Notes: generated by a model not told the origin, from the letters alone. Counted from the stretch's first letter, positions 1-21,800 are shown. The stretch: DNA of 50,062 bases from Candidatus Gottesmanbacteria bacterium (GCA_963701185.1 OY969569.1:615486-665547); one strand, 5' to 3'. Numbers and translations: made by a program.

Positions 1-3000
1 GCCGGAGAAACTTCGGGCGTTGGCAGGGGTGCCGCTGACGGAGTCGACGTTGTTGTCGTCATATCCGAAACCAGTATGGCCCGCCAATTATACAGATAAT
101 CCCGAATCGCCGTGCCCCTGATGCTTATGCGGAATCCGTTTTTCGTGATGTCCGTCACGTAGGCATTCTGCCCCTCTTCCACAAACAAAGCTTGGTCTGA
201 ACTTTCGGGGATGACCAACGAGAACGTCACGACCGGCGGGGTATCGTAGGACGCAGGAAAAACCACATCAACGGCGTTGGTATCCTTGGCGATAATCGCC
301 TGGCCTGCCGTACTGTTGTTGAAGATCGCGACTCCTTTCATGATGAGGTTTTTATGGAATATCACCGTATCAAAATATTCAACAAGAGATCGGAAGAGTG
401 CAGGACCCTGAAACCCGACGCCGGCCTTAAACGTCACCGCTCCCGTTGCCTCCAGTTGGTTGAGAGAGGTCAGCACGGGGATCGTGTTTCCTTTGTCGAT
501 GAGTGCCTGGACTCCGGCCAGGGCAATACCCGCCGTATCCAGGGCGGCCAGGTGGGTGGCATCCTCCCCGACCCCGAAGATTTCGTAGAATTTCTCTGCC
601 GTGGGGCCGATGTGGGTGACCGTATCCGGATTGGCTTTGTAGTTCCACCGGGTAAGGGGAAGGCTTGAAATCTTGGTCAAGAGATCCGCAGGATCCACGG
701 GGGTGAAGTTCTCTTTCAGGGCGATACTGGAGGTATTCTCCCAGACCCCGACATTGGAGAGGTAGGCGCCGGTGCCGGTATCGATGGGTTTGGTCGGAAG
801 AGACTGCCGTGCCGATCCCCACGTTGCCGGCAAAGTAGGCACTGCCCGTACTCGTGAGACTCCCCAGGACTGCTCCGGTGCTTCCCTGCCATTCCTGCAG
901 GTTGGCGGTTTGGGACAGGGATCCTTTGACAATGAGGCCCTGGAGGGTAGAAAGTCCTGTATTGAGGGTGGTGGTACTTTCCACCGTCAGCTGGCCTAAC
1001 CCGGTCAGGCTGTTTTGGACGGAGAATGTCGAGGCGAGATCAGAACTGCCCAGCAAGGCCAGATTGTCCAGATACACGGTTTTATTTGCTTTTACGAGGA
1101 CGCCGTATGGTTTAGAAGATGCAACACCAGTCACCGTTGCCGACATTCTGTACCAACCCGATCCGAGCGATGTGTAGGTGGTGGTTTGTGGAATTGCTCC
1201 CGCAATAAGTTGGGCGTCACTGGATGTAACTGCAGCGCCTGTGGTGTAGATGGCGGCGGTGAGTGTATACGTTGACGTGTCGCCAACATTGACGGATTGA
1301 GTGAATGCTGCATCATTTGCTCCGGCGACAAGTTTTGTGCTTCCTGCTGATCCGCCATATGTCGTTGCGGTTTCCGCCGTTGTCGTCAAATTCGTATCCA
1401 ACATTCCCGTGGTATACTCTCCCCCGGTCCCCCGGGCCCACAGGGTAAAGTTGTCAAACGTGTTGCTGGCATATGTTGAAAAAAGACCGTGTTTGGTATT
1501 GGTATTGGCCGTCATCGTTAACTCTGCTCCTACAAGAGCATTGTTGTAGTAAACCCGCAATTTGTTACCATCTTTGATAGCTCGCAGGGTAGCCCCGGCG
1601 ACATATGTAACTGTGGTTGTCTGTTTGTTGGTATATACTCCTGCCACTGCCTCATCTACTAATACTTGAGTGCCGTTGTGATAAATAAGAATAAAGTTAG
1701 CCGGACTACCAGTAGAATCCAAGTTTAATACCAATCCTGCTTGGGTGCCTGCAGTCATGGTCACATTCGCATCAGCAATGACATCACTGTCGCTTGTGGC
1801 GACCGTGGAGAAGAGGGAGGAAAGGGTGAGAGGTTTGACTGACAAATCATCGAGATATAAACTTTTGGAACCAAAATTGTTTCCCCGTTCGACTCTATAT
1901 GTTGTTGTGGCGGTTCTAAAGGTCGAAAGATAATTTGCATATGATGTTGTTGGATTGAATTGTGTCCTATCATTTGCTCCAGTTCCCCCAGCTTTAAAAT
2001 CTGGACTAGATGTTGTACTACTGACTTTTGCCCACATATTTTGGTAATACCAACCCCCTGAAACTAGTTTAGTGGTCTCGTCTATATACATATCGCTATT
2101 TCCAGCATCAACATCAAATCTAGCGGCGTGACCTCCCCCATGAATATCTACTGTTTCATCGGCGATAGTTCCACTTGCCTTGGTTTCTACCCAGTTTGCG
2201 AAGACATCATTACCTCCAGCACCAGCTGTTTCAAATCCTATATTATCCAAAATCTCACTCCCCAAACTTGGTGTAATCACATTTTTGTTTGAAGAAATGG
2301 CTCCTCCTGTCCAGGCTAAAGAGGGTGTGGTTTGAGAATCCGGGCCAGTAGTTTCACTATTGCCAATCGCCCCATCCCCACGGGTAAACGTATCATATGC
2401 CAATGGTGTCGGGAGCCAAAGGTTGGTGGGGATGCGGATGTTGTCAGCGGTGAGAGAATTTACATTTCCGGCAGTGCCAATACGAGGTACTAAAGCCCCT
2501 GAACCCGTGGAATTTATCCAAAGTAATGACCAATTTGTAAAGGCTCCACCTTTAATAAACCAATATGTTCCTGTAGTACGCATGACTGAAGCGATTTGGT
2601 AGGGTGAGGTACTTATTGTTTCTATGTTGAGGGGATAACTATTATAGTTAATTCCAGCATAGTTATATAAAAGATCACCATTCCACCCAAACTGCATTCC
2701 TCCTCCACCGCTTGGTTGGTAAACATTACCAATCAATAATTTACCCGCAACTCTAGCTTGAGAGGGATAGTTAAGAGTGGCAGCACCATACGCAAGATTC
2801 AGGCTACCTGATCCGATTGAGACGGTATTCGTATCCACCACAGTTCTTACCCCTCCCGTGGGTTCCGCCTGGGTGCCGTTGACGGCTCCTGCGGCGCGGT
2901 CGGTCGTAAACTGGTCTTCCAGTACGTTGCCGTAGTCCCAGGAGGAGATCCCGGCATCAAAAGTCGGATTGGTAAACTTGTTGCCCGAGGAACCCGAAGG

Positions 3001-6000
3001 GATATCAATGGAGGCCGCGGCATCAGCGGTATAGCGCAGGGCCAACTTCGAGATACCGCCGGAGATAATCTTCAGCGCTTCCGTTCCGGCGGCAGATTCG
3101 GCGGCAATGGTACCGGTGACCTGCAATTTCGATGTCGGTGCCGTGGTGCCGATCCCCACCAGGCCGGACGCGGTGATGCGCATCTGTTCCGTGGCCCCGT
3201 TGGTGGTGAAAAGAAGGGCATTATTGGTTTGCATCGTCAGGTTGGTGGTGCCGGAGAGAGAGTTCGTCGTCCCCAGGGTGAGGGTCCCGGCCGTGGAGGT
3301 GAGGGTGCCGGAGGCTTTGATATTCCCGGTGACATCCAACACTTCCGAAGGCGCGGTGGAACCGATCCCCACCCGCCCGTTGGTGGTATCAATATCCAGA
3401 ACTGCAGTTCCTGCTGCATTGTTGAACTGATAGGCTGTCGTGGTATTGGTAGACCGGGAGAAGGTTAATCCGCCGAGGGCATCCACGGCTCCCAGGACGG
3501 TTCCGGATGAGCTCTGCCACTCCTGAAGGTTGGCGGATTGTCCGGAGAAGCCTTTGACAACGAGGGCCGGGAGGGAAGCAAGACCGGAGTTGAGGGTGGA
3601 GGTGGATTCCACACTCAGGCCTCCCAGACCCGTGGTGGAGTTGGTAATGGCCAGGGTGGTACCGGCGCCGGAGGAACTGAAGAGGGCCAGATTATCCACG
3701 TAGACGGTCTTCCCTGCTTTGACCCGGACCCCGTAGTTTTTGGCACTTGTCACCCCGGTGAGAGTGGAGGAGAGTTTGTACCAGCCATTGCCCGCGGACG
3801 TATAGGTGGTGGTCAGGGCGGTGGCGGACACATCACTGAAGAGCTCGACATCCGCCGAGGTGACCGCCGCACCGGTCGTATATGCGTAGGCGGTGAGGTT
3901 GTAGGAAGACGTATCCGGCAGGGTGACACGTTGGGTGTAGGCATTGTCGTTGGTGCCGGCAACCAGTTTGAGCGAGGCGGTTCCGGCATATGGTATGGTT
4001 GTATCGCGTGTTGCCGTCAGATCCACATCCGGCAGCCCGGTGGTATATTCCCCTCCCGTCCCCCGGGCAAAGAGGGTAAAATTATCAAACGTATTGCCGG
4101 AATAAGTGGAAACAGTCCATGTTTGGTGTTAGTATTGGCCGTCATCGTTAACTCTGCTCCGACCAGGGCATTGTTGTAGTAAACCCGAAGTTTGGTACTC
4201 GTCCGGCACGAGACCCGGAGCGTCGCTCCGGCAACGTAGGTAGAGGCGGTGGATTGTTTAATTGGTGTAGACTCCGGCGACGGCTTCATCCACTTTCACA
4301 TTCGTGCCATCATGGTACACAATGATGAAGTTGGCAGGAGAGCTTGTTGAATCCAAATTCGTTACCAGTCCTGCCTGAGTCCCAGCAGTCATCGTCACAT
4401 TCGCATCAGCAATCACATCAGCATCACTGGTTGCGACAGTGGAGAAAAGGGAGGAGAGGGTGAGGGGTTTGAGGGTAACATTATCAACTGTGCCACCAAA
4501 TCCATCTAATGCTTGTAAAAGTAGGTTTGTATTTGATGTGCCAGATCGACCAGTTCTTACTACTGCCCCGGTTGATGTAGAAAATGGGAAACTACCAAGT
4601 CCTGCGAAAATATATAATTCTCCAGCAGTGCGTGTCATGTCGGTTGTAAACTGGTACCAAGTCCCACCAGTTACAATTGAAGATTGCGTCATATTATTGC
4701 CAGCACCTGCTCCTGCAGTTGCAATTCCTGCACCGATTGTCCAATTTGCATCGTGTGTCCACACCGTATCTGAATCAAAAGTACCGTTTACAACAACATC
4801 ATTTCCAATCGTCGGTGTAATAGAAAGAACTCCCCCCGCCACTGCTCCGCCGGTGATGGCGAGAGCGGAGGTCGTTTGGGAATCAGGCCCGCTGGTTTCC
4901 GTCGTCGTTGCCCCCGGAGTCCCGAAAGTCGAATATGCCAATGGTGTCGGGAGCCAAGTGGAGGTGGGGATATGGAGGTAGTCAACTAAAGTTTGGGTTG
5001 TATTTAGACCATATAAAAGAGAAGCAGGATAGAGAGTTGCCGTATTTCCCGTACTCCCAATCCAGTTCAATTTCCAACCAGTTCCGTCATTTAGAAATAC
5101 ATAGTTTCCCGTAGAACGTAATACATTAGCTATTTTATAGGTAGTGTTGTATGCGGTATTTGCCGTTAAGATTGTACTGCCATTTGCGACTGCATAGAAA
5201 CCAGACGTCGAGGATGGTGTATAGAGATAACCCGCAGAGGCAAAGTTTGCAAAGCTTGTTGGATTACTTATATTTGACCATCCATGCACTGAAAATATGT
5301 TTCCAGATGGTCCTGTTATTGCATCCGTAATCATCGTCTTTCCAGCAACACGAGTAACACCACTATAAAGCAACCTCGGATCACCAAGAACACCACTACC
5401 AGCAGAGAAATTAGCTAAGCCAGATGATATTGATAACTTTCCTGTCACATCCGTCACCGTTCTCACTCCTCCCGTGGGTTCGGCTTGGGTACCGTCAAGG
5501 TTGGTAGTGATGAGGAAGTTGGTAAAGCTATTACTTGCGTACGTACTAAATAATCCCTGCAACGTGTTGTTGACAATACCTGCATCAGAAATCGTTTGAT
5601 CAGCTCCGATTTGCGCGCCGTTGTAGATGAGTTTATAGACATTCCCTACTTTCGCTACTTTCAGCGTCGCTCCGGCAACATAGGCAGCGGCGGTGTTAAT
5701 GAGGGAGGTATATGTCCCCCCCACATTTTTATCCAGGTGAACACTGGTTCCGTCATGGTAGGCAATGACAAAGTTGGCGGGAGTACTGGCTGAATCCAGA
5801 TTAAGAACCAGTCCTGCCTGTGTTCCTGCCGTCAGCGTCACCCCGGCAGACATAATCTTATTCCCCGTCGCCTCGGCGACCGTGGAGAAAAGGGAGGAAA
5901 GGGTGAGGGGTTTGGCGGAAACATCGTCCATCCTGCTTTCCAATCCAATCGTATTTAATTGATTTGTAGTTTGAAAGCGTGAAGTAGTCGAAGTCGCCCT

Positions 6001-7797
6001 CCCTGTTATGATTTTCTGCGTCCAGCTTGTTGATGAGTTAATAAGGGTTTGACTCAACCCCTCAAATGAATTATTTGCCGTTATTTTCTTTAACCAAACC
6101 GATGCAGTATACCAGGTTCCCACCACGGTTGTCGTATTTTGAAGAGCTATTCCATAGTTTGCTGCCCCGTTAGTAACTGATAAACTTTGAGAACCGCTTC
6201 CGCCCGTTCTTTCATCGGCTACTCCAGCAAGTGTAGCCGAGGCGGCAGCCGTCCAGTTATTAGGCGGATTTCCCGTTTCCATATCCCCATTTGTTAACAA
6301 CTCACTCCCCAGCGCTGGTGTAATCACGCCACTATTTGTCAGTGTTGAAACGCCGGAGACCAGGGTCGTCGGGGCGGCGGTGGTAAACTGGTCCAACAGG
6401 GTATTGGTATTCCACCCGCCGGTCGTAATATCCGTGTCAAAGGTGCCGTTGGTAAATTTATTGACGGAAGAGGCGCCGGGGACATCCAGCGTTGCTCCCG
6501 ATCCCGTCCACTTCATCGCCAGTTTGGCCGCATCGGCCGTATCCGTGAGTTTTAATCCTTCGACTCCGCTTGCGACTTTTGCGGCCATGTCCCCCACGAC
6601 GGTGAGGGTATTGGCGGGAGCCGTGGTCCCGATACCCACACGGGAGTTTGTGGTATCAAACGAGAGAATATTGGATATATTTTTGGTCGTGAGGACCGCC
6701 GTATCAACCAGGGTGAGATTGCCGGTTGTATCAACCGAGGCCACGATGGTCCCGTTATGGCCGTAGATGGTTAAGGGGGTATCCGTGACCGGGGCATTCA
6801 CGGCACCGGAATACCCCAAGACGATATCCCCATCCTCGTCCATCAGCGCTTTCTGATACCCGGCAATGGCAAACGCAAGGAGCTGTCCGTTGGCAACCGA
6901 CGTCGTCGGATTAATGAGGACCGATGCCTGGGCAAGCGTACTGTCGGTAGGCGCATACGTAAACGTGGTCTGGCCGGAAAAAATCTGGGACAAATTTGAG
7001 TGGAGATTTGCCACAAGCAGATTATCAAACCGTTTGCCCGCGGACCCCAAATCACTGCCCAAATCCGTATCAGGCAAGATGTCGTGCCCGTTGGTAATCG
7101 TCGCATTTCCGAAGGTGAGGGTATCCATCACGACGGCGTCCGTGGTTGTCGTTAACCCGACCGTGGTGCCGCTGTCGGTCCAGCCCGAAAGCGCGTAGTT
7201 GGGCGCTTCCATATTAATGGTTACGGTTTTCCCTGTCGCGTCGGTGGTGATGGTGACTGCCCCGCTTGCGGCCAAGGTCAGCGTATCGGTATTACTTCCG
7301 GCCGCGATACTGGTTTGGCCGGACACGGCGATGGTTTTAAAAATATTCTGGGCCGCGCCGGTATCGCTGTTGGTGATTTTTAATCCATCGACGGTCATGC
7401 CGCCTCCCGCAGTTAAGGATAAAGCACCGGTACTGCCCCCTAACGATACCACGCCTGTATTTGTTATGACGGGAGTCTGACCGGTAGAGACACTCACGCC
7501 TGTCCCGGCAGTTAATCCGTGGAGAATGTTTCCTGCCGTAATGGATGCAAATGATCCGGTACTTGCAGGAGCCTCGATATCCCCGGAGACGACCAGCCCG
7601 GTATCAAACGTTGCCGTGTCTTTAAACTCTGCCGGCACATGGACGGTGAAGATGAAACTGCCGGACCCGCTGGCAATGTTTTCACCTAAAACATTTACAG
7701 ACGGCAATGACGATCGGGTAAAACCTGCGATACCGGCGACGGCCAAAATAGCCACAAATGTCCCTATTTGTCCAAGTTTTGTTTGTAATAATTTCAT
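1..7797 (-). CDS. Giant membrane-anchored fibre/adhesin-like protein C with S74 chaperone domain; 3' end runs off the window; frame broken at about 4260, 4110 and 790 in this sequence
   Basis: ORF pieces 4258-7797, 4017-4289 and 427-4026, then an S74/C-terminal part in a shifted frame to base 1. N-terminal hydrophobic anchor (IGTFVAILAVAGIAGF) then VLG motif; repeated (G/R)VGIGTTAP motifs; paralogous end-to-end with the two upstream genes. Confidence 0.75.
221..1072. repeat. Near-identical repeat of 7967-8817
   Basis: Shadow ORFs 354-668 and 8100-8414 are identical (offset 7746); sequence match seen by eye. Confidence 0.85.
495..731 (-). other. Peptidase S74 intramolecular chaperone domain (copy C)
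   Basis: DNA near-identical to copy B, which reads WENTSSIALKENFTPVDPADLL..LPLTRWNYK..HIGPTAE..; Ser and Lys spaced S+5 as in S74 autocleavage dyads. End boundary approximate. Confidence 0.8.
3120..4075. repeat. Near-identical repeat of about 18976-19931; part also repeated at about 10890-11430
   Basis: Shadow ORF pairs 3229/19085 and 3538/19394 share offset 15856; the encoded segment DLTATRDTTIPYAG..TSKLQVTG is essentially identical. Confidence 0.85.
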
Positions 7798-10700
7798 GGT
7801 GCTGTCTCCCCTGAACCCGTAGATTCCACTGTATCAGAATTATCCGGCGCAAGCGCGACCCAATTGAACCGGTACTCGTGCAGTGCCCCATCCGGAACCG
7901 TGATGCGGAAACCTTTTTCGGTGACATTGGTGATGAATGCGTTCTGCCCCTCGGAGCCGACGCGTGAGAACGTCACGACCGGCGGGGTATCGTAGGACGC
8001 AGGAAAAACCACATCAACGGCGTTGGTATCCTTGGCGATAATCGCCTGGCCTGCCGTACTGTTGTTGAAGATCGCGACTCCTTTCATGATGAGGTTTTTA
8101 TGGAATATCACCGTATCAAAATATTCAACAAGAGATCGGAAGAGTGCAGGACCCTGAAACCCGACGCCGGCCTTAAACGTCACCGCTCCCGTTGCCTCCA
8201 GTTGGTTGAGAGAGGTCAGCACGGGGATCGTGTTTCCTTTGTCGATGAGTGCCTGGACTCCGGCCAGGGCAATACCCGCCGTATCCAGGGCGGCCAGGTG
8301 GGTGGCATCCTCCCCGACCCCGAAGATTTCGTAGAATTTCTCTGCCGTGGGGCCGATGTGGGTGACCGTATCCGGATTGGCTTTGTAGTTCCACCGGGTA
8401 AGGGGAAGGCGTGAAATCTTGGTCAAGAGATCCGCAGGATCCACGGGGGTGAAGTTCTCTTTCAGGGCGATACTGGAGGTATTCTCCCAGACCCCGACAT
8501 TGGAGAGGTAGGCGCCGGTGCCGGTATCGATGGGTTTGACGGAAGAGACTGCCGTGCCGATCCCCACGTTGCCGGCAAAGTAGGCACTGCCCGTACTCGT
8601 GAGACTCCCCAGGACTGCTCCGGTGCTTCCCTGCCATTCCTGCAGGTTGGCGGTTTGGGACAGGGATCCTTTGACAATGAGGCCCTGGAGGGTAGAAAGT
8701 CCTGTATTGAGGGTGGTGGTACTTTCCACCGTCAGCTGGCCTAACCCGGTCAGGCTGTTTTGGACGGAGAATGTCGAGGCGAGATCAGAACTGCCCAGCA
8801 AGGCCAGATTGTCCAGGTACACGGTTTTCCCGGCATGGACGTACACGCCGTAGGGTTTGGCACTTGCTACCCCCGTGACCGTTGCCTTCATCCGATACCA
8901 CCCGCCCCCGACAGCCGTGTACGTGGTGGGAAGGATATTCGGGCCTGCAGAGAGTTCAGCGTCTGCCGCCGTGACCGCGCTCCCGGTCGTATAGATGGCG
9001 GCGGTGAGCGTATACGTATTGGTGTCCCCCACGTTGACGCTTTGGGAAAATGCCCCGCCGCTTACTGCCACGATTTTTGTACTTGCCGGGCTGCCGCCGT
9101 ACGTTGTCGCCGTATCACTCGTCACCGTCAGATTCGTATCCGGGATATCCGTATACTCTCCTCCCGTCCCCCGGGCCCACAGGGTAAAGTTGTCAAACGT
9201 ATTGCCGGAGTATGTCGAAAAAAGACCGTGTTTGGTATTGGTGTTGGCCGTCATCGTTAACTCTGCTCCTACAAGAGCATTGTTGTAGTAGACCCGCAGT
9301 TTAGTGCCGTCCCGGACGGCCCGAAGCGTCGCTCCGGCGACATAGGTCACGGCCGTAGATTGTTTGTTGGTATATACTCCGGCGACGGCTTCATCAACTT
9401 TGACACTTGTCCCATCGTGATACACAATGATGAAGTTGGCAGGGCGGCGGTACTATCCAAATTTAGCACTAGTCCCGCCTGTGTTCCGGCAGTCATAGTT
9501 ACATTAGCATCCGCCACCACATTACTGGTTCGCTGCGGGGACTGAAGGAGAAAAGGGTGGAGAGGGTGATGGGTTTAATTGAAACATCGTCAAATTGTGC
9601 TGTGCCATTTGTACCATCCCTGAGATATATAGGTTGAGGAATGGAAATAGAACGGGCGGAACGAATTTTTTGTGTCCAAGTAGAAGATGTGTTGTCTAAA
9701 TATGGATCTCCGTTAAACACAAGACAGGCATTAGTTCCGTCATAGACTTCTATTCCATGCATTTATTTGATACCATGCTCCAACAACTGTTGTTATATTC
9801 TGGAATTCCCGCTTGGGGAGTTACTGTTCCCCCATAAGCAATTTGAAGAGATTGTGTTCCTGCGCACCAGTATGTTCCGCTACGGTGGTTAAGACAGCAT
9901 TTCTATCAGCAGTCCAGCTGCTTGGTGGGTTACCTGTTTCCATGTTCCCATTTGTTAACATCTCACTCCCCAATGTCGGTGTGATAGTCATTACTCCACC
10001 GGCTTTGGTGCCACCTGTCCAGTTGACAGTTGGGGGTGGTTTGGCCATCCGGCCCGGTGCGCTCGGTAACTGTGGCCATCGGCAGATGAAAAAGTATCAT
10101 AGGCCAGAGGTGTCGGCAGCCAGGTGGTGGTGGGGATACGGATGTTATCAGCGGTACAATGCTGCAGTAGCACCACTCCAAGCGCTTACACCTGGGTACA
10201 TTGTTGAGGTTGCAGCAGTGGACTGAATGTATACGAGAGTCCAGTTAGTGTACGCACCGCCTTTTATATAGTAATAGGCGCCATTAGTTCGTAAAACTAC
10301 AGCTATTTTGTAGTTCGTAGCATAACTAAATGCTCCCAAAGAGGAACTATTATTGCCATTATCCGTGGCATATAATACTTCCAGTTTCACTAAAATAAAT
10401 ACCATTGGCTTGGACTCGTCCTGCACTGGCCATCATCAAAACCTAGACCAATTCTTCCCGACGAAGCAATATTAATGTCCAGATAAGACTGTCCTTCCGG
10501 CAGATCTTGTTATACTGGGCCACCAAATACCGGGATTACCATCACCTACAGTTGATCCTGAAACAGACAACTGGCCACCTGTTATAGACAGTAGGGAGGT
10601 TGTATCCACCACTGTCCTTGTTCCCCCCGTGGGTTCAGCTTGGGTGCCGTTGACACTGCCTGCGGCCCGGTCGGTCGTAAACTGGTCCTCCAGTACGTTC

Positions 10701-13700
10701 CCGTAGTCCCAGGAGGAGATCCCGGCATCAAAGGTCGGATTGGTAAACTTGTTGCCCGAGGAACCCGAAGGGATATCAATGGAGGCCGCGGCATCAGCGG
10801 TATAGCGCAGGGCCAACTTCGAGATACCGCCGGAGATAATCTTCAACGCTTCCGCTCCGGCGGCAGATTCTGCGGCAATCGTACCGGTGACCTGCAATTT
10901 TGACGTGGGTGCCGTAGTGCCGATGCCCACCAGGCCGGACGCGGTGATGCGCATCTGTTCCGTGGACCCGTTGGTGGTGAAAAGAAGGGCATTGTTCGTT
11001 TGCATCGTCAGATTGGTGGTACCGGAGAGAGAGTTCGTCGTACCCAGGGTGAGGGTCCCGGCCGTGGAGGTGAGGGTGCCGGAGGCTTTGATATTCCCGG
11101 TGACATCCAACACTTCCGAAGGCGCGGTGGAACCGATCCCCACCCGCCCGTTGGTGGTATCAATATCCAGAACTGCAGTTCCTGCTGCATTGTTGAACTG
11201 ATAGGCTGTCGTGGTATTGGTAGACCGGGAGAAGGTTAATCCGCCGAGGGCATCCACGGCTCCCAGGACGGTTCCGGATGAGCTCTGCCACTCCTGAAGG
11301 TTGGCGGATTGTCCGGAGAAGCCTTTGACAACGAGGGCCGGGAGGGAAGCAAGACCGGAGTTGAGGGTGGAGGTGGATTCCACACTCAGGCCTCCCAGAC
11401 CCGTGGTGGAGTTGGTAATGGCCAGGGTGGTATTAGGACCGCTTGTTGCATATAACGCGAAACTGTCAATATAGACGGTTTTGCCTGCATGAACTGACAC
11501 GCCGTAATTTTTGGCAGAGGCCACACCCGTCAGCGTTCCGGTTAACCGGTACCAGCCGCTGCCGACGGATGTAAATGTTGTGGCAATGGCCGACCCGTCG
11601 TAAAACAGATCCAGATCCGCAGTTGTCACGGCACTCCCGTCGGTGTAGGCGTAGGCGCTTACTGTATATACTGATGTGTCCGGCAATGTCACGGATTGGG
11701 CGTAGGCATTGTCGTTGGTGCCGGCAACCAGTTTGAGCGAGGCGGTTCCGGCATAGTGGACGGAGGTGTCCCGGGTGGCCGTAAGGCCCGTATCCGGAAT
11801 ATTTATATACTCATTCCCCGTCCCGCGGGCAAAGAGAGTGAAGTTGTCAAACGTGTTGCCAGAGTAGGTAGAGAATAATCCGTGTATGGTATTGGTGTTG
11901 GCCGTCATGGTTAATTCAGATCCGACCAGGGCATTGTTGTAATACACTCGTAGTTTGGTTCCTTCTCTAATGGCTCGGAGTGTGGCCCCAGCACTATATG
12001 TTACTGTCGTTGTTTGTTTGTTGGTATATACTCCGGCTACTGCCTCATCAACTAATACCTGCGTGCCATTATGGTATACCAGGATAAAGTTTGCCGGACT
12101 ACTTGTGGAATCTAAATTTAATACTAACCCAGCCTGAGTTCCTGCAGTTAAAGTTACATTTACATCAGCCACCACATTGGCAGTATTGGCTGGCACAGTG
12201 GAGAAGAGGGAGGAGAGGGTGAGGGGCGTAACTGATACATCGTCTGTTCTGGTCTCTTGGCCTAACGTTGACGACTGACTTTCTAGTTGTATATAATTGG
12301 TAGTTGAAAGTGAACGCCTTACTCCTAGTCCATAGGTCCATGATGTGCTGGCGATATTTGCAAATGTGAACCAATTTGTTCCGTCATAATAACGCAAAGC
12401 CATTGATGGAGCATTTATATTTTTAGCCCATCCAGATGCTTGATACCATGTTCCGTTTGATACAGATAACGTTTCTCTAGCGCTTGGATAATTACCGCCA
12501 TTATGGATAATTGACATTGATTTCGTCCCACTACCTCCAGTTCTTTCATCATTTACGCTAGATAGTGTGGCAAGATTGAGAACTGCCCAACCAGAAGGAG
12601 GATCACCAGTTTCCATATTCCCATTTGTCACCATCTCACTCCCCAATGTCGGTGTGATACTCAGAACTCCTCCCGCCACGGTTCCGCCGGTGAGGGCGAG
12701 GGCGGGGGTCGTTTGGGAATCAGGCCCGCTGGTTTCCGTCGTCGTTGCCCCCGGGGTGCCAAAAGTTGAGTATGCCAGGGGAGTAGGTAGCCAGGTGGTG
12801 GTGGGGATGCGGATGTTATCAGAGGTAAAGGCGCCATCATAATTTCCAATTGTGGGGTAAAGAGTACTTGTTGAATCTTCATTCCCTGTCCACAAGAGAG
12901 TCCAGTTAGTATATGCCCCACCTTTAATAAAGGTGAAACTACCAGTGCTTCGTAAAACAGTAGCAATGTTGTAAGTACTGTTTGAATAACTTCCAATACT
13001 TTCAGATGCATCGTGACCTGCAAATATTGTATTACTTGAGTGAAATGTCACGTAAGAATCTGAAGATAACTGAAAACCGTAATTTGGAGCTGAATTCGTT
13101 TTAAAACCGATTCTCTTGAACGTCCCTGTGTTAGGTGTTATTTGACTTACCATCATTTTGCCGGCAGATCTGGTTACTGAACCGTAGCGTATTCCCGGGT
13201 CGGCGTATCCACTTAATCCACCAGAAAAATTTAATACTCCACTTCCAATACTAACTTTGTTTGTGCTATCCACAACAGTTCTCACTCCTCCCGTCGGTTC
13301 GGCCGAAGTGCCGTCAAGGTTGGTGGTGATGAGGAAGTTGGTAAAGCTATTACTTGCGTACGTACTAAATAATCCCTGCAACGTGTTGTTGACAATACCT
13401 GCATCAGAAATCGTTTGATCAGCTCCGATTTGCGCGCCGTTGTAGATGAGTTTATAGACATTCCCTACTTTCGCTACTTTCAGCGTCGCTCCGGCAACAT
13501 AGGCAGCGGCGGTGTTAATGAGGGAGGTATATGTCCCCCCCACATTTTTATCCAGGTGAACACTGGTTCCGTCATGGTAGGCAATGACAAAGTTGGCGGG
13601 AGTACTGGCTGAATCCAGATTAAGAACCAGTCCTGCCTGTGTTCCTGCCGTCAGCGTCACCCCGGCAGAAATAATCTTATTCACCGTCGCCTCGGTGACT

Positions 13701-15875
13701 GTCGAGAAGAGGGAGGAGAGAGTGAGGGGTTTGACACTAAGATTATCAATCTCCATTAAATCACCCGCATTATTACCAACATAAATTCTAAGATTGGGAC
13801 CAGTTGCAGTTGTTCGGCCGGAAACGGTGAAATTAGCCCACAAACTACTTGTTGCGGGATATAGAGCAGGAACCATGTTCCCCCCATATATACCTGATGA
13901 AGAATGTCCCGTCCATTTTGCTGCGTAAGTTAGCATGAACCAAGTATTAGCTGTTGTTGTCCATGCCCAATATGCACTTCCACTCACACCTGACCCCGGA
14001 TAGGCAAGACGTATATTGTATGAACCGGTGTTTGGTGCACTTGCATCAGATGATAGTGTTGGAGCGGGAGACCCTTGAGAAAACCATCCGGTTGTTGCAT
14101 TTGCTTCATTTCCATTTGGATCGGAAGCTGCATTTGCGGTAGTATAAAATTCACTCCCCAGCGTTGGGGTAATCACGCCACTATTTGTCAGTGTTGAAAC
14201 GCCGGAGACCAGGGTCGTCGGGGCGGAGGTCGTGAATTGGTCATTGAGAGTGTAGCCGTTCCAGCCGGTCAGGTCGATTTCAAAACCGGTATTAGTCATG
14301 GTACTGGCAGACATATCAAGGGTTACCCCGGTACCCGTCCACTTCATCGCCAATTTGGCCGCATCGGCCGTATCCGTGAGTTTTAATCCTTCGACTCCGC
14401 TTGCGACTTTTGCGGCCATGTCCCCCACGACGGTGAGGGTATTGGCGGGAGCCGTGGTCCCGATACCCACACGGGAGTTTGTGGTATCAAACGAGAGAAT
14501 ATTGGATATATTTTTGGTCGTGAGGACCGCCGTATCAACCAGGGTGAGATTGCCGGTTGTATCAACCGAGGCCACGATGGTCCCGTTATGGCCGTAGATG
14601 GTTAAGGGGGTATCCGTGACCGGGGCATTCACGGCACCGGAATACCCCAAGACGATATCCCCATCCTCGTCCATCAGCGCTTTCTGATATCCGGCAATGG
14701 CAAAACCCAACAATTGGCCGTTGGCAACCGACGTCGTCGGATTAATGAGGACCGTTGCCTGGGTATTCGTTGTATCGGTGGGCGCATAGGAGAAGGTGGT
14801 CTGGCCGGAAAAAGCCTGGGAGGAATTGGAATTGATATTGGCAACCCACACGTTATCAAACCGCAGGGCATTGGACCCCAAATCACTGCCCAAATCCGTC
14901 CCGGGAAGAAGGGATTTTCCGTTGGTAATCGTCGCGTTTCCGAAGGTGAGGGTATCCATCACCACCGTGTCCGTGGTTGTCGTTAACCCGACCGTGGTTC
15001 CGGTTTTTGTCCAACCGGAGAGGGTGTAATCCGGGGTATCGGCATTGATGGTGAGCGTTTTCCCTGTTGCATCGGTGGTGAGGGTAATGCCCCCGCTTTG
15101 GACAACGGTGAGGGTGTCGGTATTACTTCCGGCGGCAACACTGGTTTGGCCGGATACCGCGATGGTTTTAAAGATATTCTGGGAGGTTCCCCGATCGCTG
15201 TTGGTCACTTTCAACCCGTCGACGGTCATGCCGCCTCCTGCAGTCAGGGAGAGGGCGCCGGTTGAGCCGCCCAGAGACAGGACACCGGTGTTGGTTACCG
15301 TCGGAGTCTGGCCGGTGGAGACACTCATCCCCGTTCCTGCCGTCAGTCCATAGAGGATATTGCCTGCCGTGACCCGGGAAAATGATCGCGGAGCTCTGGG
15401 CAGCCTGAACATCTCCGGAGATGATCAACCCGGTATCAAACGTTGCCGTGTCTTTAAACTCTGCCGGCACATGGACGGTGAAGATGAAACTGCCGGACCC
15501 GCTGGCAACGGTGTCGCCGAGGACCGTTGCGGGGGTTTCGACCGGGGGGATAGTATGTTTTATTCGTATCATCCCTCCACCAAGGAAGAGTAAAACAAGA
15601 CCAAGGGAAACAAGAATCACCTTTGTCATTCCCGGCTTGACCGGGAATCCGCCTTCTGTTTTCTTTACAACCAATACCGATCCCCGCCTTCGCGGGGATG
15701 ACAAACCGTGCGAGGCAGAATTTCTGAGTTCTTCGATCTGCTCCGGGGTATACCGGCGCTGGTTGCCGAAAGTCCGCTGCGGGATGACCCGCCCCGCCTC
15801 TTCCCACCTCCGAAGGGTTTTTGTGGAGATGCCGAGGATCCGCGCCGCATCGTAGATCGATAAAAGTTTTGTCAT
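7794..15875 (-). CDS. Giant protein B: MerR-HTH, TM, fibre/adhesin-like repeats, S74 chaperone; frame broken at about 15387 and repeatedly in 9425-10480
   Basis: ORF pieces 15168-15875, 10472-15412, 10148-10426, 9821-10048, 9499-9762 and 7794-9425 are collinear with the paralogues; total span 8082 nt is a multiple of 3; ATGA overlaps at both ends. Confidence 0.72.
8240..8477 (-). other. Peptidase S74 intramolecular chaperone domain (copy B)
   Basis: WENTSSIALKENFTPVDPADLLTKISRLPLTRWNYKANPDTVTHIGPTAEKFYEIFG. End boundary approximate. Confidence 0.82.
15009..15837. repeat. Near-identical repeat of 22149-22977 (MerR-HTH to start of fibre)
   Basis: Offset 7140 throughout, with only scattered substitutions. 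Confidence 0.9.
15390..15875 (-). other. MerR-type HTH plus TM N-terminal segment of giant protein B
   Basis: LLSIYDAARILGISTKTLRRWEEAGRVIPQRTFGNQRRYTPEQIEEL, then TM VILVSLGLVLLFLGGGMI and VLG motif. Confidence 0.85.
15624..15703 (-). repeat. TGTC-tagged REP doublet (80 bp) in frame inside giant gene B
   Basis: Minus strand TGTC-ATCCCCGC(GAAG)GCGGGGAT-spacer-ATTCCCGG(TCAAG)CCGGGAAT-GACA; translated as LSSPRRRGSVLVVKKTEGGFPVKPGMT. Confidence 0.9.
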
Positions 15876-18800
15876 GGAGTGCCTCCGAAGGGCGAAATAC
15901 TTTTTGTTGTCTTCATATCCGCAACCGCTACCGCGTTCCAGTTGTACAAATACTCCTGCATTGCGACGTCGGGGATAACGATGCGGAATCCTTTTTCCGA
16001 AACATTGGTCAAGTACGCCTTGTGTCCGTCCGAATCAATCGGTGAGAATGTCACGACGGGAGGCGTGTCATACGGCACGGCAAATGTCACATCAACCTGA
16101 CTTGTTGCCGTCGCCATTTTCGCCTGACCGACGGAATCTTTGTTAAATGACGGCGTCCCCTCAATGGTTACATTTTTGTCATAGGTCACCGCACTAAAGT
16201 ACTCAGTTAACGCCCGGAAAACCGCGGAACCGATAAATTCCGCATCCGCCCGGAACGTCACCGCTCCCGTTGCCTCCAGTTGGTTGAGAGAGGTCAGCAC
16301 GGGGATCGTGTTTCCTTTGTCGATGAGTGCCTGGACTCCGGCCAGGGCAATACCCGCCGTATCCAGGGCGGCCAGGTGGGTGGCATCCTCCCCGACCCCG
16401 AAGATTTCGTAGAATTTCTCTGCCGTGGGGCCGATGTGGGTGACCGTATCCGGATTGGCTTTGTAGTTCCACCGGGTAAGGGGAAGGCGTGCAATCTTGG
16501 TCAAGAGATCCGCAGGATCCACGGGGGTGAAGTTCTCTTTCAGGGCGATACTGGAGGTATTCTCCCAGACCCCGACATTGGAGAGGTAGGCTCCGGTGCC
16601 GGTATCGATGGGTTTGGTCGCAGAGACTGCCGTCCCGATCCCCACGTTGCCGGCAAAGTAGGCACTGCCCGTACTCGTGAGACTCCCCAGGACTGCTCCG
16701 GTGCTTCCCTGCCATTCCTGCAGGTTGGCGGTTTGGGACAGGGATCCTTTGACAATGAGGCCCTGGAGAGACGCAAGACCGGAGTTGAGGGTAGTTGTGG
16801 ATTCTACCGCCAACTGCCCCAGTCCCGTGAGGGTGTTTTGGATAGCAAGAGATGTGGTGGAAGAATCGGGAATGAGGGCAAAATCATCCAGGTACACGGT
16901 TTTCCCGGCATGGACGTACACGCCGTAGGCGCGGGCTGTCGCGACGCCAGTCACGGCGGCCTTTGCTCTATACCACCCGCCCCCGACAGCCGTGTACGTG
17001 GTGGGAAGCGGGCTTGCGCCGGCATACATCTGTGCGTCCGCCGACGTGACGGCACTCCCGTCCGTGTATATGACGGCGGTGAGACCATACGTATTGGTGT
17101 CCCCCACGTTGACGCTTTGGGAAAATGCCCCGCCGCTTACTGCCACGATTTTTGTTGACCCCGCCGAGTTTCCGTATGTCGTTGTCGTATCCCGCGTCAC
17201 CGTCAGATTCGTATCCGGGATATCCGTATACTCTCCTCCGGTCCCCCTTGCAAACAGCGTAAAGTTGTCAAAGGTGTTACCGGAGTAGGTAGAGAACAGA
17301 CCGTGTTTGGTGTTAGATATTATTCCTGCATCGGATACTGTCTGTTCCGTGCCAATCAAAACATTGTTGTAGTACACCCGCACTTTCAGGGCTCCTCCGG
17401 AAGTGGAGGTGATCACTCTCAAAGTAGCTCCTGCCGAATAAGTAGCTGCTGTATTTATTAAAGATGTATATGTTCCCCCAACATTTTTATCCAGTTTGAC
17501 ATTGGTTCCGTCATGGTAGGCAATCAGGAAGTTGGCAGGAGAGCTTGTTGAATCCAAATTCGTTACCAGTCCTGCCTGAGTCCCAGCCGTCAAAGTCACA
17601 TTAGCATCGGCAACGACATCAGTATCAGAGGTGGGGACAGTGGAGAAGAGAGAGGAGAGGGTAAGTTGTTTAAAAGAAGCATCGTCAACTATCACCGCAT
17701 CAAAATTTGAAGTGCCTCTTTCTTGAGCAGGATAAAAATTGGTTGAGTTTCCAGCTGTCCGGCCGGTTTTTAAATATTGGGTATATGAAGATGCTGTGAT
17801 GTACCCCAAAGTTGTTGTCCCCACTGTTAATTCTGTCACATCTGCGGATACTGTCCCGCCGGAACCGGAAGTCCTTTTAGCCCACACATATCCCTGCCAC
17901 CATCCCGCGGTTGGAGAAAAGGCGGGAAATCTAAGACCGTTCCATTGGGCAACTCCTGTAAAAGCTTGGGCTTTGCTTCCCCCATGGACATCCGCACTTT
18001 GAGAAACTGTTGGGCTTCCGATTTTGGTGAGGTTGTCATTTAAACCGCTGGTGTAGTTTCCCTCTAACCCCGGATCGGTTAAAATTTCAGCTCCTGTTGT
18101 GGGGGTAATCACCACTTTATTTCCACTTATTGCCCCTCCTGTCCAGGCTAAAGAGGGTGTAGTTTGGGAGTCCGGGCCGGTGGTTTCGGAAGATCCAATC
18201 GCCCCATCCCCACGGGTAAACGTATCATATGCCAGCGGTGTCGGGAGCCAGGTGGAGGTAGGGATTTTAATATAATCAAATGAACTAGCTAGATTATTAG
18301 TAAATATACTTGGGGTTAGTGAGGCATTTGTTCCAATGTCTGATTTCCAAATAAACGTCCAATTTCCGGAAGTGGGTTTAAAAAATAAATAAGCACCAGT
18401 CGAACGCAATATTATAACCACTGTGCCGCTCTGGCCATCATAAAAAGATATTTGTGGAAAGCCCCCACTCCAACCTTTTAATTTATTGTCGATAATATAA
18501 CTTTGATATCCATTTGTGGCGTTCCATCCGGCAACATAATAATTTGCAGGACTACCGTTACTAAAAGTGGGGAATATCAACATTTTTCCAGCAGCCCTGG
18601 TAACCGATGGGTATGTTATCGTTGGATTACCTGTTGTGCCTCCCGTTGCGAAACTCAACTGTCCGCCGGTAATACTTAACTTGCTATTGGTATCCACCAC
18701 CGTTCTTATTCCCCCCGTGGGTTCCGCTTGGGTACCGTTGACGGCTCCGGCGGCGCGGTCAGTGGTGAACTGGTCCTCCAAAGCATTGCCATAATCCCAC

Positions 18801-21800
18801 CCGGTTAAATTCGATTCAAACGTATAATTGGTGAATTTATTCGCGGAACTTACGGATTGCACATCAATAAATCCTGTGGAACCGGCTCCATACCCCAATG
18901 CCAGCGTATTGTTTCCGGAAAGAATTTTTAGCGCGGCGGCCCCGGCTCCCGCCTCTGCAGCTATCGTTCCCGTCACCTGCAATTTTGACGTGGGTGCCGT
19001 AGTGCCGATCCCCACCAGGCCGGACGCGGTGATGCGCATCTGTTCCGTGGACCCGTTGGTGGTGAAAAGAAGGGCATTGTTCGTTTGCATCGTCAGATTG
19101 GTGGTACCGGAGAGAGAGTTCGTCGTCCCCAGGGTGAGGGTCCCGGCCGTGGAGGTGAGGGTGCCGGAGGCTTTGATATTCCCGGTGACATCCAACACTT
19201 CCGAAGGCGCGGTGGAACCGATCCCCACCCGCCCGTTGGTGGTATCAATATCCAGAACTGCAGTTCCTGCTGCATTGTTGAACTGATAGGCTGTCGTGGT
19301 ATTGGTAGACCGGGAGAAGGTTAATCCGCCGAGGGCATCCACGGCTCCCAGGACGGTTCCGGATGAGCTCTGCCACTCCTGAAGGTTGGCGGATTGTCCG
19401 GAGAAGCCTTTGACAACGAGGGCCGGGAGGGAAGCAAGACCGGAGTTGAGGGTGGAGGTGGATTCCACACTCAGGCCTCCCAGACCCGTGGTGGAGTTGG
19501 TAATGGCCAGGGTGGTACCGGCGCCGGAGGAACTGAAGAGGGCCAGATTATCCACGTAGACGGTCTTCCCTGCTTTGACCCGGACCCCGTAGTTTTTGGC
19601 ACTTGTCACCCCGGTGAGAGTGGAGGAGAGTTTGTACCAGCCATTGCCCGCGGACGTATAGGTGGTGGTCAGGGCGGTGGCGGACACATCACTGAAGAGC
19701 TCGACATCCGCCGAGGTGACCGCCGCACCGGTCGTATATGCGTAGGCGGTGAGGTTGTAGGAAGACGTATCCGGCAGGGTGACACGTTGGGTGTAGGCAT
19801 TGTCGTTGGTGCCGGCAACCAGTTTGAGCGAGGCGGTTCCGGCATATGGTATGGTTGTATCGCGTGTTGCCGTCAGATCCACATCCGGCAGCCCGGTGGT
19901 ATATTCCCCTCCCGTCCCCCGGGCAAAGAGGGTAAAGTTGTCAAAGGTGTTACCGGAGTAAGTGGAGAAGAGTCCGTGGAGGGTGTTGTTGATTATCCCT
20001 GCATCCGTGACTGTTTGCTCAGTTCCAACCAATGCGTTGTTGTAATACACTCTGACTTTTAGAGTATTAGCATCGGAGTGGTAGGTGATGACTCTTAGGG
20101 TTGCTCCTGCCGAATAAGTAGCCGCCGTATTTATCAAACTGGTATATGTTCCCCCAACATTTTTATCCAGTTTGACATTGGTTCCGTCATGGTAGGCAAT
20201 CAGGAAGTTGGCAGGAGAGCTTGTTGAATCCAAATTCGTTACCAGTCCTGCCTGAGTCCCAGCAGTCATAGTTACATTCACATCCGCAATCACATCAGCA
20301 TCAGAAGTGGGTACTGTGGAGAAAAGGGAGGAGAGGGTAAGAGGTCTATATGAAATATTGTCGATTGTTCCGTTCCAAGAATTGGAATAAACGCCTATGC
20401 TAGTTTGACTAGCTCTTAATGTATTTGTATAAGAGCCAGGCGTGTTTCGAGCAATAGTGTTTGCACCCGCGTATGTCCATATGAATTGCCCTACTTCTAA
20501 TACTAAATCAAAACCAGCTTGGTACCAATTATTAATAGTCCCAACTGATTGCGTTAGAAGACCAGCATTCCCGTTGTTGGATGCAACTCCACCTGAAATC
20601 GTCCACCCAGTTCCTTTAGCCCAGCTCGTATCAGTGTCAAAAGTGCCATTGATAATAACATCACTTCCCAGTGTCGGGGTGATAGTCATTACTCCACCGG
20701 CTTTGGTGCCACCCGTCCAGGTTAATTGGGGAGTAGTTTGAGAATCCGGGCCAGTGGTTTCGGTAGCGGTTGCCCCGGCAGTAGTAAACGTATCATATGC
20801 CAGAGGGGTGGGGAGCCAGGTGGAGGTGGGGATACGGATGTTGTCAATATTGAGGTCGTAATTACCAGTTACCCCAGCATATAAATTGGAAGTGTTGCCT
20901 ATAAAATCAGTATATAATAATGTCCAATTAGGATATTCTGTTCCGCCCTTTATAACAAAATATGTACCTGAACTTTTTAGAATTACCGCTAATTTATAAG
21001 TAACATTAAAAGTATATGTTCCTAGAGGAGTAGCATTGGCTGTTTGAATCACGCTTGAGTTGCCACGTAAATAAAAACCGCTTTGCAAGGTATTGGATTG
21101 AGCCGTAGTAAATCCAATCTTTACATCTTTAAAAGCAGAAACAAGTTCTTTATAATCAAAAATTGCTATCTTTCCAGCTGCTCTTGTTGTGACTGGATAC
21201 CATAACCCGGGATCACCCAGCCCTACTCCACCAGTTGCAAAGACTGCTACACCACCAGAAATTGACAGCTTGGAGTTGGTATCCACCACCGTTCTCACCC
21301 CTCCCGTGGGTTCGGCGGGGGTGCCGTTGACACTGCCGGCTGCACGGGCGGTGGTAAACTGGTCCAACAGGGTATTGGTGTTCCACCCGCCGGTCGTAAT
21401 ATCCGTGTCAAAGGTGCCGTTGGTCAGCTTGTTGACGGATGCGGCTCCCGGGACATCCAGTGTTGCTCCCGATCCCGTCCACTTCATCGCCAGTTTGGTC
21501 GCATCAGACGTATCCGTAAGTTTAAGACCCTCGACTCCGCTTGCGACTTTTGCGGCCATGTCCCCCACGACGGTGAGGGTAGTGGCGGGAGCCGTAGTCC
21601 CGATACCCACACGGGAGTTTGTGGTATCCAGAGAGAGAATATTGGATATATTTTTGGTCGTGAGGACCGCCGTATCAACCAGGGTGAGATTGCCGGTTGT
21701 ATCAACCGAGGCCACGATGGTTCCGTTATGGCCGTAGATAGTTAAGGGGGTATCCGTGACCGGAGCATTCACGGCATCCGAATACCCCAAGACGATATCC

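Follow-up and report, generated by a model that had tools for sequence, protein, structure and literature searches.

Putative lectin-like cassettes within a phage-type repeat unit of predicted giant fibre proteins in a Candidatus Gottesmanbacteria bacterium

Introduction

How ultra-small episymbionts recognize and bind their hosts is largely unknown (PMC12206443). Here we describe a locus in a 50,062-nt stretch of DNA from Candidatus Gottesmanbacteria bacterium (GCA_963701185.1 OY969569.1:615486-665547; hereafter the window, with all positions counted from its first letter), where three tandem giant genes carry two recurrent sequence slots, A and B, each filled by divergent cassettes lying between conserved anchors. 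An earlier note on this DNA, made without database searches, had described the cassettes as hypervariable, AT-rich binding modules swapped by recombination at conserved anchors, and had proposed a receptor-range or antigenic-variation system. The analyses reported below partly confirm that observation and partly support that interpretation. They define slots A and B, together with a conserved module C, as a recurring unit of about 510 residues with the order A-linker-B-C, relatives of which are also encoded as stand-alone genes among phage structural genes.

Results

Three tandem giant genes and their cassettes

A survey of open reading frames (ORFs) in the window showed positions 1-23,030 to be occupied by large minus-strand ORFs that make up three tandem paralogous giant genes (Table 1). 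The body of gene 1 contains two A-linker-B-C units and has a Peptidase_S74 domain towards the C-terminus; gene 2 contains the arrangements B3-C, A3-B4-C and A4-B5-C; and the C-terminal end of gene 3 extends past the start of the window. Cassette bounds were set by a regular-expression search of the three minus-strand frames for four anchor motifs, of which AEPTGG.RTV and IPT..WLPTPLAY were each found six times, ITP..G.[ED] eight times and LTLSSLFSTV seven times; the eighth right-hand anchor of slot B, belonging to B5, is degenerate and frameshifted. The cassettes are all co-oriented, and 14 of 14 begin and end no more than 15 nt from where the earlier note had placed them, so that its count of two recurrent slots with six A and eight B versions is upheld.

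Table 1. Genes, cassettes and other mapped features of the locus. GC3, G+C content at third codon positions; HTH, helix-turn-helix.
Feature	Position	Strand	GC3	Remarks
Gene 1	15872..23030	-		Pieces: ORF 22308-23030 (MerR-type HTH and transmembrane helix) and ORF 15872-22552 (2,226-residue body)
Gene 2	7794..15875	-		Pieces 15168-15875, 10472-15412 and 7794-9425; HTH and transmembrane start as in gene 1
Gene 3	1..7797	-		Pieces 4258-7797 and 427-4026; signal or transmembrane start of its own, no HTH
Cassette A1	20834..21286	-	0.26	Putative core of beta-sandwich A; modelled as residues 61-211
Cassette A2	18266..18697	-	0.31	Bounded by anchors
Cassette A3	12809..13273	-	0.31	Bounded by anchors
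Cassette A4	10138..10609	-		Bounded by anchors; at least 3 frame changes
Cassette A5	4972..5454	-	0.29	Bounded by anchors
Cassette A6	2434..2838	-	0.33	Bounded by anchors
Cassette B1	20342..20659	-	0.31	Putative core of beta-sandwich B; subtype 'NGTFDTDTSW..WTISGG'; best outside relative 47% identical
Cassette B2	17666..18085	-	0.39	Subtype 'GLEGNY..HGGS'
Cassette B3	13727..14149	-		Bounded by anchors; no relative above 28% identity
Cassette B4	12224..12634	-		Subtype 'NGNMETGDPPSGW..DERTGGSG'
Cassette B5	9570..9961	-		Subtype common to B4 and B6; at least 5 frame changes
Cassette B6	5908..6300	-		Bounded by anchors; subtype common to B4 and B5
Cassette B7	4465..4797	-	0.25	Bounded by anchors
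Cassette B8	1831..2253	-	0.26	Bounded by anchors
Identical tract, module C of gene 3	5507..5850	-		344 nt, 100% identical to 13326-13669
Partner tract, module C of gene 2	13326..13669	-		Identical to 5507-5850
Peptidase_S74 intramolecular-chaperone domain, gene 1	16400..16555	-		PF13884, residues 2004-2055

The S74 domain of gene 1 scores 35.8 bits, above the Pfam gathering threshold of 22. Paralogous copies lie near 8,450-8,480 and 705-737, and the motif NTSSIALKENF occurs in all three genes. The Ser...Lys motif of the family is visible in the sequence; autocleavage at the conserved serine and trimerisation of the fibre that precedes the domain would be expected of a member. The released chaperone forms the C-terminal end of canonical S74 proteins; in gene 1 an unusual extension of about 170 residues lies beyond the domain (16,000-16,400) and gives a weak, sub-threshold match to an H-type lectin (E=0.007).

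Homologues of these genes are giant proteins of Microgenomates (Patescibacteria, or candidate phyla radiation, CPR), several of which carry HTH, fibre and S74 parts in one ORF.

Predicted fold of the A-linker-B-C unit

Cassettes occupying one slot are homologous versions of one fold, with motifs common at both ends. Their protein identity within a slot is 29-41% for A and 18-44% for B, bearing out the high divergence first noted for them. An AlphaFold model of the unit (mf75be61d3327), built on an alignment of 91 sequences, reached a mean predicted local distance difference test (pLDDT) value of 91.9 and a predicted template modelling score (pTM) of 0.88, an earlier model from 16 sequences having been poor (pLDDT 60). 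It places three beta-sandwiches in a defined arrangement, in which the cassettes are not unrelated inserts; they are the predicted cores of two lectin-like beta-sandwiches, A and B. In the same model the right-hand anchor of A forms the last strand of that domain (residues 205-213), and the right-hand anchor of B covers the strand with which B ends (364-376), plus a short helix and the strand that opens C (382-386). The anchors would thus look conserved because they close folds and join domains. Across the 91 family members the A core has a column entropy of 2.9 bits and B one of 2.6, as compared with 1.3-1.8 in anchors, linker and module C.

Foldseek comparisons matched the model to concanavalin-like lectin folds, namely CBM66, galectins, SPRY domains and a Bacteroides ConA-like protein, the CBM66 match having a target-normalised TM-score of 0.55-0.57 and a root-mean-square deviation of 3.8 Å. 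Among viral models the matches were phage minor tail proteins, adhesins and 'LamG-like jellyroll' proteins. No Foldseek match spanned the whole unit (query-normalised TM-score at most 0.27), and the unit profile matched no sequence of the PDB. The predicted structure and these matches to lectin-like or carbohydrate-binding-module-like beta-sandwiches make the variable parts plausible binding modules, as had been suggested. The more specific likening of type B to CBM4/9 domains has weak support: PF02018 (CBM_4_9) weakly matches two of seven B cassettes (best E=2.6e-4) and leaves the other B cassettes unmatched.

The sequence 'TFTRGDGAIG', with its RGD tripeptide, is frequent in the conserved A-B linker (18,150-18,230; 2,320-2,395; most homologues). 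The linker had low confidence in the 16-sequence model and is ordered in the 91-sequence model. The RGD tripeptide may be a coincidence.

Stand-alone relatives among phage structural genes

When the unit profile was searched against 1.84 billion representative proteins (clusters at 50% identity), 3,772 relatives were retrieved, 1,474 of them at E<=1e-30. The best 150 are mostly stand-alone proteins of 520-570 residues bearing exactly one unit; alignments to the profile run from unit position 30 to 534, the proteins being about 540 residues long. Protein-level conservation of the anchors extends to thousands of these single-copy phage proteins. No family in Pfam, NCBIfam or PHROGs covers the unit, a search of 50,697 GenBank phage records gave no match to it, and a literature search returned no paper on the family. 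The 'hypervariable gene' described from Gracilibacteria, a 9-mer repeat, is another phenomenon (PMC6851277).

Relatives of the unit are encoded at 50 loci on IMG/VR viral contigs. Gene context was examined for six loci (L019, L028, L066, L071, L077 and L078). The unit is preceded by a portal gene in L028, L066, L077 and L078, with a terminase, scaffold protein or major head protein gene in some; a tape-measure gene follows the unit in L066 and a tail-fibre gene in L071; and L019, from IMG/VR, showed no phage hallmark genes. In all five of the examined loci that have hallmark genes, the stand-alone unit sits among phage structural genes. The CPR fibres thus combine two phage-type parts, the repeated unit and the S74 domain.

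On the phage contigs L028, L066, L071, L077 and L078 the gene of about 540 residues is found a few kilobases downstream of the portal gene, and the stand-alone gene often lies beside HNH or homing endonucleases, glycosyltransferases or radical-SAM genes. The unit was also seen on contigs assigned to Chloroflexi (L014, L017 and L018, from Anaerolineae and Chloroflexia genome bins). The L014 copy is an ORF of 555 residues, whose GC3 is 0.69 for A, 0.51 for B and 0.84 for C on a background of 0.69. These units may be prophages or true cellular copies outside the CPR.

Base composition of cassettes and scaffold

The cassettes are indeed richer in A and T than the scaffold, as the earlier note had it, with total G+C of 0.33-0.47 against 0.55-0.65. 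Compared in 30-codon windows, GC3 is 0.30+-0.08 in cassettes (n=44) and 0.62+-0.12 in scaffold (n=152; Mann-Whitney test, p=6e-22), the housekeeping genes standing at 0.60; at four-fold degenerate sites the corresponding G+C values are 0.30, 0.71 and 0.73. The AT-richness of cassettes therefore resides at synonymous sites, and amino-acid composition is ruled out as its source. Third positions of the cassettes are about equally enriched in A and in T, which rules out a single-strand deaminase signature and makes a strand-specific deaminase unlikely. Low GC3 (about 0.40) continues for some 80 codons past B into the conserved module that follows, and the intergenic spacers of the window have a G+C content of 0.39.

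GC3 in the window increases steadily the closer the DNA is to its best paralogue (Spearman 0.74): it is 0.37 where no paralogous match exists, 0.54-0.55 below 85% identity, 0.63 at 85-95% and 0.68 above 95%. Across 12 Patescibacteria loci, in which A cassettes were delimited by alignment-projected coordinates or by the anchor pattern, cassette GC3 is confined to 0.20-0.38 over a span of genome GC3 values from 0.23 to 0.60 (slope 0.12 for A and -0.04 for B). The low-GC genome L001 has a scaffold GC3 of up to 0.46, above the 0.23 of its housekeeping genes. On viral contigs the A and B cores fall below the phage background GC3 by 0.11 (p=4.5e-8) and 0.08 (p=6.5e-4), respectively; linker and module C do not, and cassette GC3 tracks the background. 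The closest stand-alone units lie on AT-rich phage contigs (background GC3 0.35 and 0.32); on L077, GC3 is 0.25 in cassette A and 0.24 in cassette B.

Mosaic histories and gene conversion

Beyond motifs of 30-78 nt, the cassettes of the window have no DNA similarity to one another. Genes 2 and 3 are collinear, and five scaffold blocks are 83-97% identical between them in DNA, with all five cassette pairs unalignable; B3 is 23% identical as protein to its positional counterpart B6, next to C modules of 97% identity. Such a block pattern cannot result from neutral divergence after duplication, so that scaffold and cassettes differ in age; recombination has uncoupled them. The same patchwork of conserved and unalignable blocks is found in L001, L002 and L004.

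One pair of C modules, in genes 2 and 3, contains the identical tract listed in Table 1, with a synonymous divergence (dS) of 0.05 between the two modules. The tract lies inside module C and ends before both anchors; outside it, identity is 80-83% over both anchors and 33-43%, the chance level, in the flanking cassettes. We read this tract, the one clear case, as a product of recent gene conversion. The anchors themselves, which had been thought near-identical in DNA, prove not to be so: mean pairwise identity of the four ranges from 0.58 to 0.73, and the median longest exact run is 8-15 nt.

Comparison of similarity matrices for B and C in 28 B-C units gave a Mantel rho of 0.01 (p=0.41), and in 20 full units all pairs of adjacent modules gave values of 0.06-0.25; such correlations, close to zero, are in keeping with mosaic module histories. 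B subtypes reappear across genomes paired with different C subtypes. Of swapping by recombination at the anchors, as first conceived, the role of recombination is supported by the mosaic histories of the modules; the mechanism is not supported, the anchors being conserved as protein only and not DNA-identical recombination sites.

Outside this genome, no window cassette has a match closer than about 47% identity in a set of 5.8 billion proteins, and some cassettes are nearer to those of other genomes (44-47%) than to their positional paralogues (23%). The closest relative in the genome collection, which lacks the window's own genome, is 53% identical; a 41-nt exact scan of metagenome contigs gave no match, and a metagenome search with a neighbouring gene retrieved only relatives of 48% identity or less. 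Module C retains 82-91% protein identity between genomes whose ATP synthase subunits are 25-51% identical. In the same comparisons the proportion of synonymous differences in module C is 0.56-0.83, near saturation, so that the conservation of the scaffold cannot be put down to recent horizontal transfer; judging from these values, the scaffold is under strong purifying selection.

Frame changes, the HTH start and the genomic setting

At least 13 frame changes occur across the three giant genes, and the housekeeping genes in the other 27 kb show no evident ones. At least eight are crowded into A4 and B5, within about 1.2 kb of gene 2 (9,400-10,640); gene 3 has two at 4,130-4,295 and one at about 800-990. 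In gene 1 a 1-nt insertion near 22,540 divides the head ORF from the body ORF, and the same insertion is present in gene 2 (22,440-22,640 and 15,300-15,500, relative to 7,470-7,668 of gene 3), so splitting the HTH, transmembrane helix and part of the head (240 and 235 residues) from the giant body. Homologues elsewhere have a single continuous ORF where genes 1 and 2 are split. Because the copies in genes 1 and 2 differ at a neighbouring base, the insertion is inherited and not a random error. The other frame changes could come from decay, from a mixed-population consensus or from sequencing error.

In genes 1 and 2 a single transmembrane helix links the cytoplasmic, DNA-binding MerR-type HTH domain (Pfam, E=2.9e-11) to an extracellular fibre that exceeds 2,000 residues (22,860-23,000; 15,700-15,850). 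This architecture of HTH, transmembrane helix and fibre is seen again in many Microgenomates homologues, and suggests a regulator tethered in the membrane, through which transcription could be coupled to the state of the fibre. A 72-nt stretch of the head, encoding '..GSGSFIFTVHVPAEFKDTATFDTG', is the same in all three paralogues (7,597-7,668; 15,429-15,500; 22,569-22,640), the region around it being much less conserved (83-93% identical).

The rest of the window is ordinary chromosome, with genes for ATP synthase, glycogen synthase, glycosyltransferases, MreB, Maf and LepA and two tRNAs. The locus adjoins the ATP synthase operon in the window and likewise in L002 and L004. A prophage or phage island was considered and rejected on the strength of these housekeeping neighbours and of the synteny kept in L002 and L004. 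PHROGs has no family for gene 1, and an exact look-up of the gene 1 protein gave no record. Long plus-strand ORFs overlap the giant genes (354-668; 8,100-8,414; others inside 1-23,000). They look like side effects of the skewed codon composition rather than genes; the duplication of some reflects repetition in the minus-strand sequence beneath them.

Discussion

We consider it probable that the locus encodes multi-specific, lectin-bearing attachment fibres built from a phage-type unit, whose two cores diversify over the long term while gene conversion homogenises the scaffold. The three genes would specify giant, membrane-anchored, tail-fibre-like surface proteins, each with two or three units and an S74 domain towards the end. 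Their A and B domains would present ligand-binding faces, probably for glycans to judge from the fold, so that 14 different binding domains per genome could furnish an episymbiont with a multi-specific attachment apparatus. The diversity would be old, the A and B cores having diversified over long periods and been re-sorted by homologous recombination; gene conversion within the genome would keep copies of the scaffold alike and leave the cassettes as unalignable lineages. AT-richness could then be a by-product, if the cores escape whatever holds GC3 high, whether recombination-linked GC-biased conversion or codon selection, and drift towards an AT-rich equilibrium; alternatively, the cores may come from an AT-rich pool of phage and CPR genes.

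Several points weigh against this explanation. Ligand binding is a prediction from the fold. Decay without GC-biased conversion does not by itself explain why cassette GC3 is flat in Patescibacteria and tracks the background in phages, and a slowing of synonymous divergence by codon selection could account equally well for the correlation of GC3 with identity. Phage context with hallmark genes extends to five loci only, L019 being without them. Cassette identities of 20-45% lie near saturation, which weakens the Mantel tests. Finally, the frame changes could mean that parts of these genes are pseudogenes, or that the consensus is unreliable here.

Rather less likely, in our judgement, is the import of cassette cores, exchanged among Microgenomates and phages through recombination in the scaffold and keeping the composition of an AT-rich pool. 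The narrow range of cassette GC3 in the 12 Patescibacteria loci regardless of genome GC3 speaks for such import, as do the AT-rich phage contigs that carry the closest stand-alone units, the differing combinations of B and C subtypes across genomes, and the scaffold of L001, whose GC3 exceeds that of its housekeeping genes as if parts of the gene were off equilibrium with the genome. Yet no recent donor can be seen, the nearest relative of any window cassette in the set of 5.8 billion proteins reaching only about 47% identity, and the anchor DNA within the genome is too divergent for efficient homologous recombination. Intergenic DNA, moreover, is AT-rich as well, so that an explanation in place suffices, and the cassettes of single-copy phage genes have a GC3 deficit too, of about 0.1. 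A related proposal, which we hold to be doubtful to a similar degree, derives the host-attachment fibres of Microgenomates from a phage virion adhesin comprising the A-linker-B-C unit and the S74 domain, with hypervariable lectin cores still drawn from an AT-rich pool shared with phages. Were it true, the host ranges of episymbionts and phages would evolve from one pool of modules, and the foreign composition of cassettes would be a trace of the traffic between them.

Nothing in these data indicates programmed or high-frequency switching. Active switching strikes us as improbable; under this scheme modules would pass from one of the three genes to another by intragenomic conversion at the anchors, with frameshifted genes 2 and 3 as the archives. 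That conversion between paralogues occurs is attested by the 344-nt tract; the genes are arranged in tandem; and genes 2 and 3 are frameshift-rich, as donor pseudogenes would be. The tract lies in scaffold, however, and not across a cassette, and no duplicated cassette was found in the window. Where a silent-cassette system would be expected to store promoterless copies, the cassettes here lie inside three full-length genes with starts of their own, and their flanks have the low identity and short exact runs given above. A shufflon or invertase is also ill matched by cassettes that all point one way and by the lack of any recombinase, reverse transcriptase or invertase among the window ORFs scanned, a point on which the earlier note was right. 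Its receptor-range or antigenic-variation system is not borne out, there being no promoterless silent cassettes and every cassette being unique among 5.8 billion proteins. Searches of public sequencing runs found none that matched either the cassette region or the housekeeping region.

It seems to us very improbable that a targeted mutator, whether a diversity-generating retroelement (DGR) or some other AT-biased system, hypermutated the cores and so yielded both divergence and AT-richness. DGRs are known from CPR genomes (PMC8144416), cassettes and scaffold meet at sharp boundaries, an AT shift is seen at synonymous sites of the cassettes, and frame changes are concentrated in A4 and B5; but the 50-kb window holds no second copy or template repeat of any cassette and no reverse transcriptase among its scanned ORFs, the near equality of A and T at third positions leaves no single-strand deaminase signature, and the cassettes that are nearer to other genomes than to their positional paralogues point to old lineages and not to divergence in place. 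An assembly artefact, with repeats mis-joined or strains mixed in the consensus, is scarcely credible even for a repetitive region whose giant genes have many frame changes beside housekeeping genes with none, since the architecture, anchors and GC3 contrast recur in independent assemblies of other projects, the 1-nt insertion is common to two paralogues that differ at the neighbouring base, and the cassettes are unique sequence not prone to collapse.

The reading of the locus as attachment fibres with long-diversified cores would make it a concrete candidate for host binding in CPR/Patescibacteria, through membrane-anchored fibres bearing 14 different lectin-like domains per genome. The unit also constitutes a large family without a curated description (at least 1,474 clusters at 50% identity), for which a confident predicted structure now locates the variation. 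The jump in synonymous composition within single genes, with G+C at four-fold degenerate sites of 0.30 against 0.71-0.73, offers a test case for distinguishing GC-biased gene conversion, codon selection and horizontal import.

GC-biased gene conversion has been proposed in bacteria (Lassalle et al. 2015, PMC4450053), and the present case resembles it in that GC3 rises with evidence of recent recombination and non-recombining segments are AT-rich; it differs in a within-gene contrast that is unusually large (0.30 against 0.71 at four-fold sites), and the relation seen here is correlational. With the vlsE/vls system of Borrelia, pilE/pilS of Neisseria and msp2 of Anaplasma the locus has in common hypervariable segments with conserved flanks, nearby paralogues of which some are non-functional, and gene conversion. 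Unlike those systems, it has no single expression site with a promoterless array, its flanks are not DNA-identical, and no cassette is common to different copies. The targets of DGRs, variable regions of C-type-lectin fold that are common in CPR genomes, likewise set the hypervariable surface of a binding fold on a conserved scaffold in surface or phage tail proteins; here, by contrast, variation embraces whole domains (110-160 residues), includes insertions and deletions and is not adenine-specific, and neither a reverse transcriptase nor a template repeat was found.

Modular phage receptor-binding proteins, such as tail fibres, tailspikes and minor tail proteins whose domains are lectin-like or LamG-like, are similar in joining conserved structural parts to hypervariable lectin-fold domains, in their mosaic histories and in their C-terminal S74 domain, and the unit itself is encoded in phage structural modules. 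In the Gottesmanbacteria locus, as distinct from those proteins, two or three copies of the unit are strung together within chromosomal, membrane-anchored cellular proteins of 2,200-2,600 residues at a syntenic locus, and the variable parts are internal domain cores rather than a swapped C-terminal tip.

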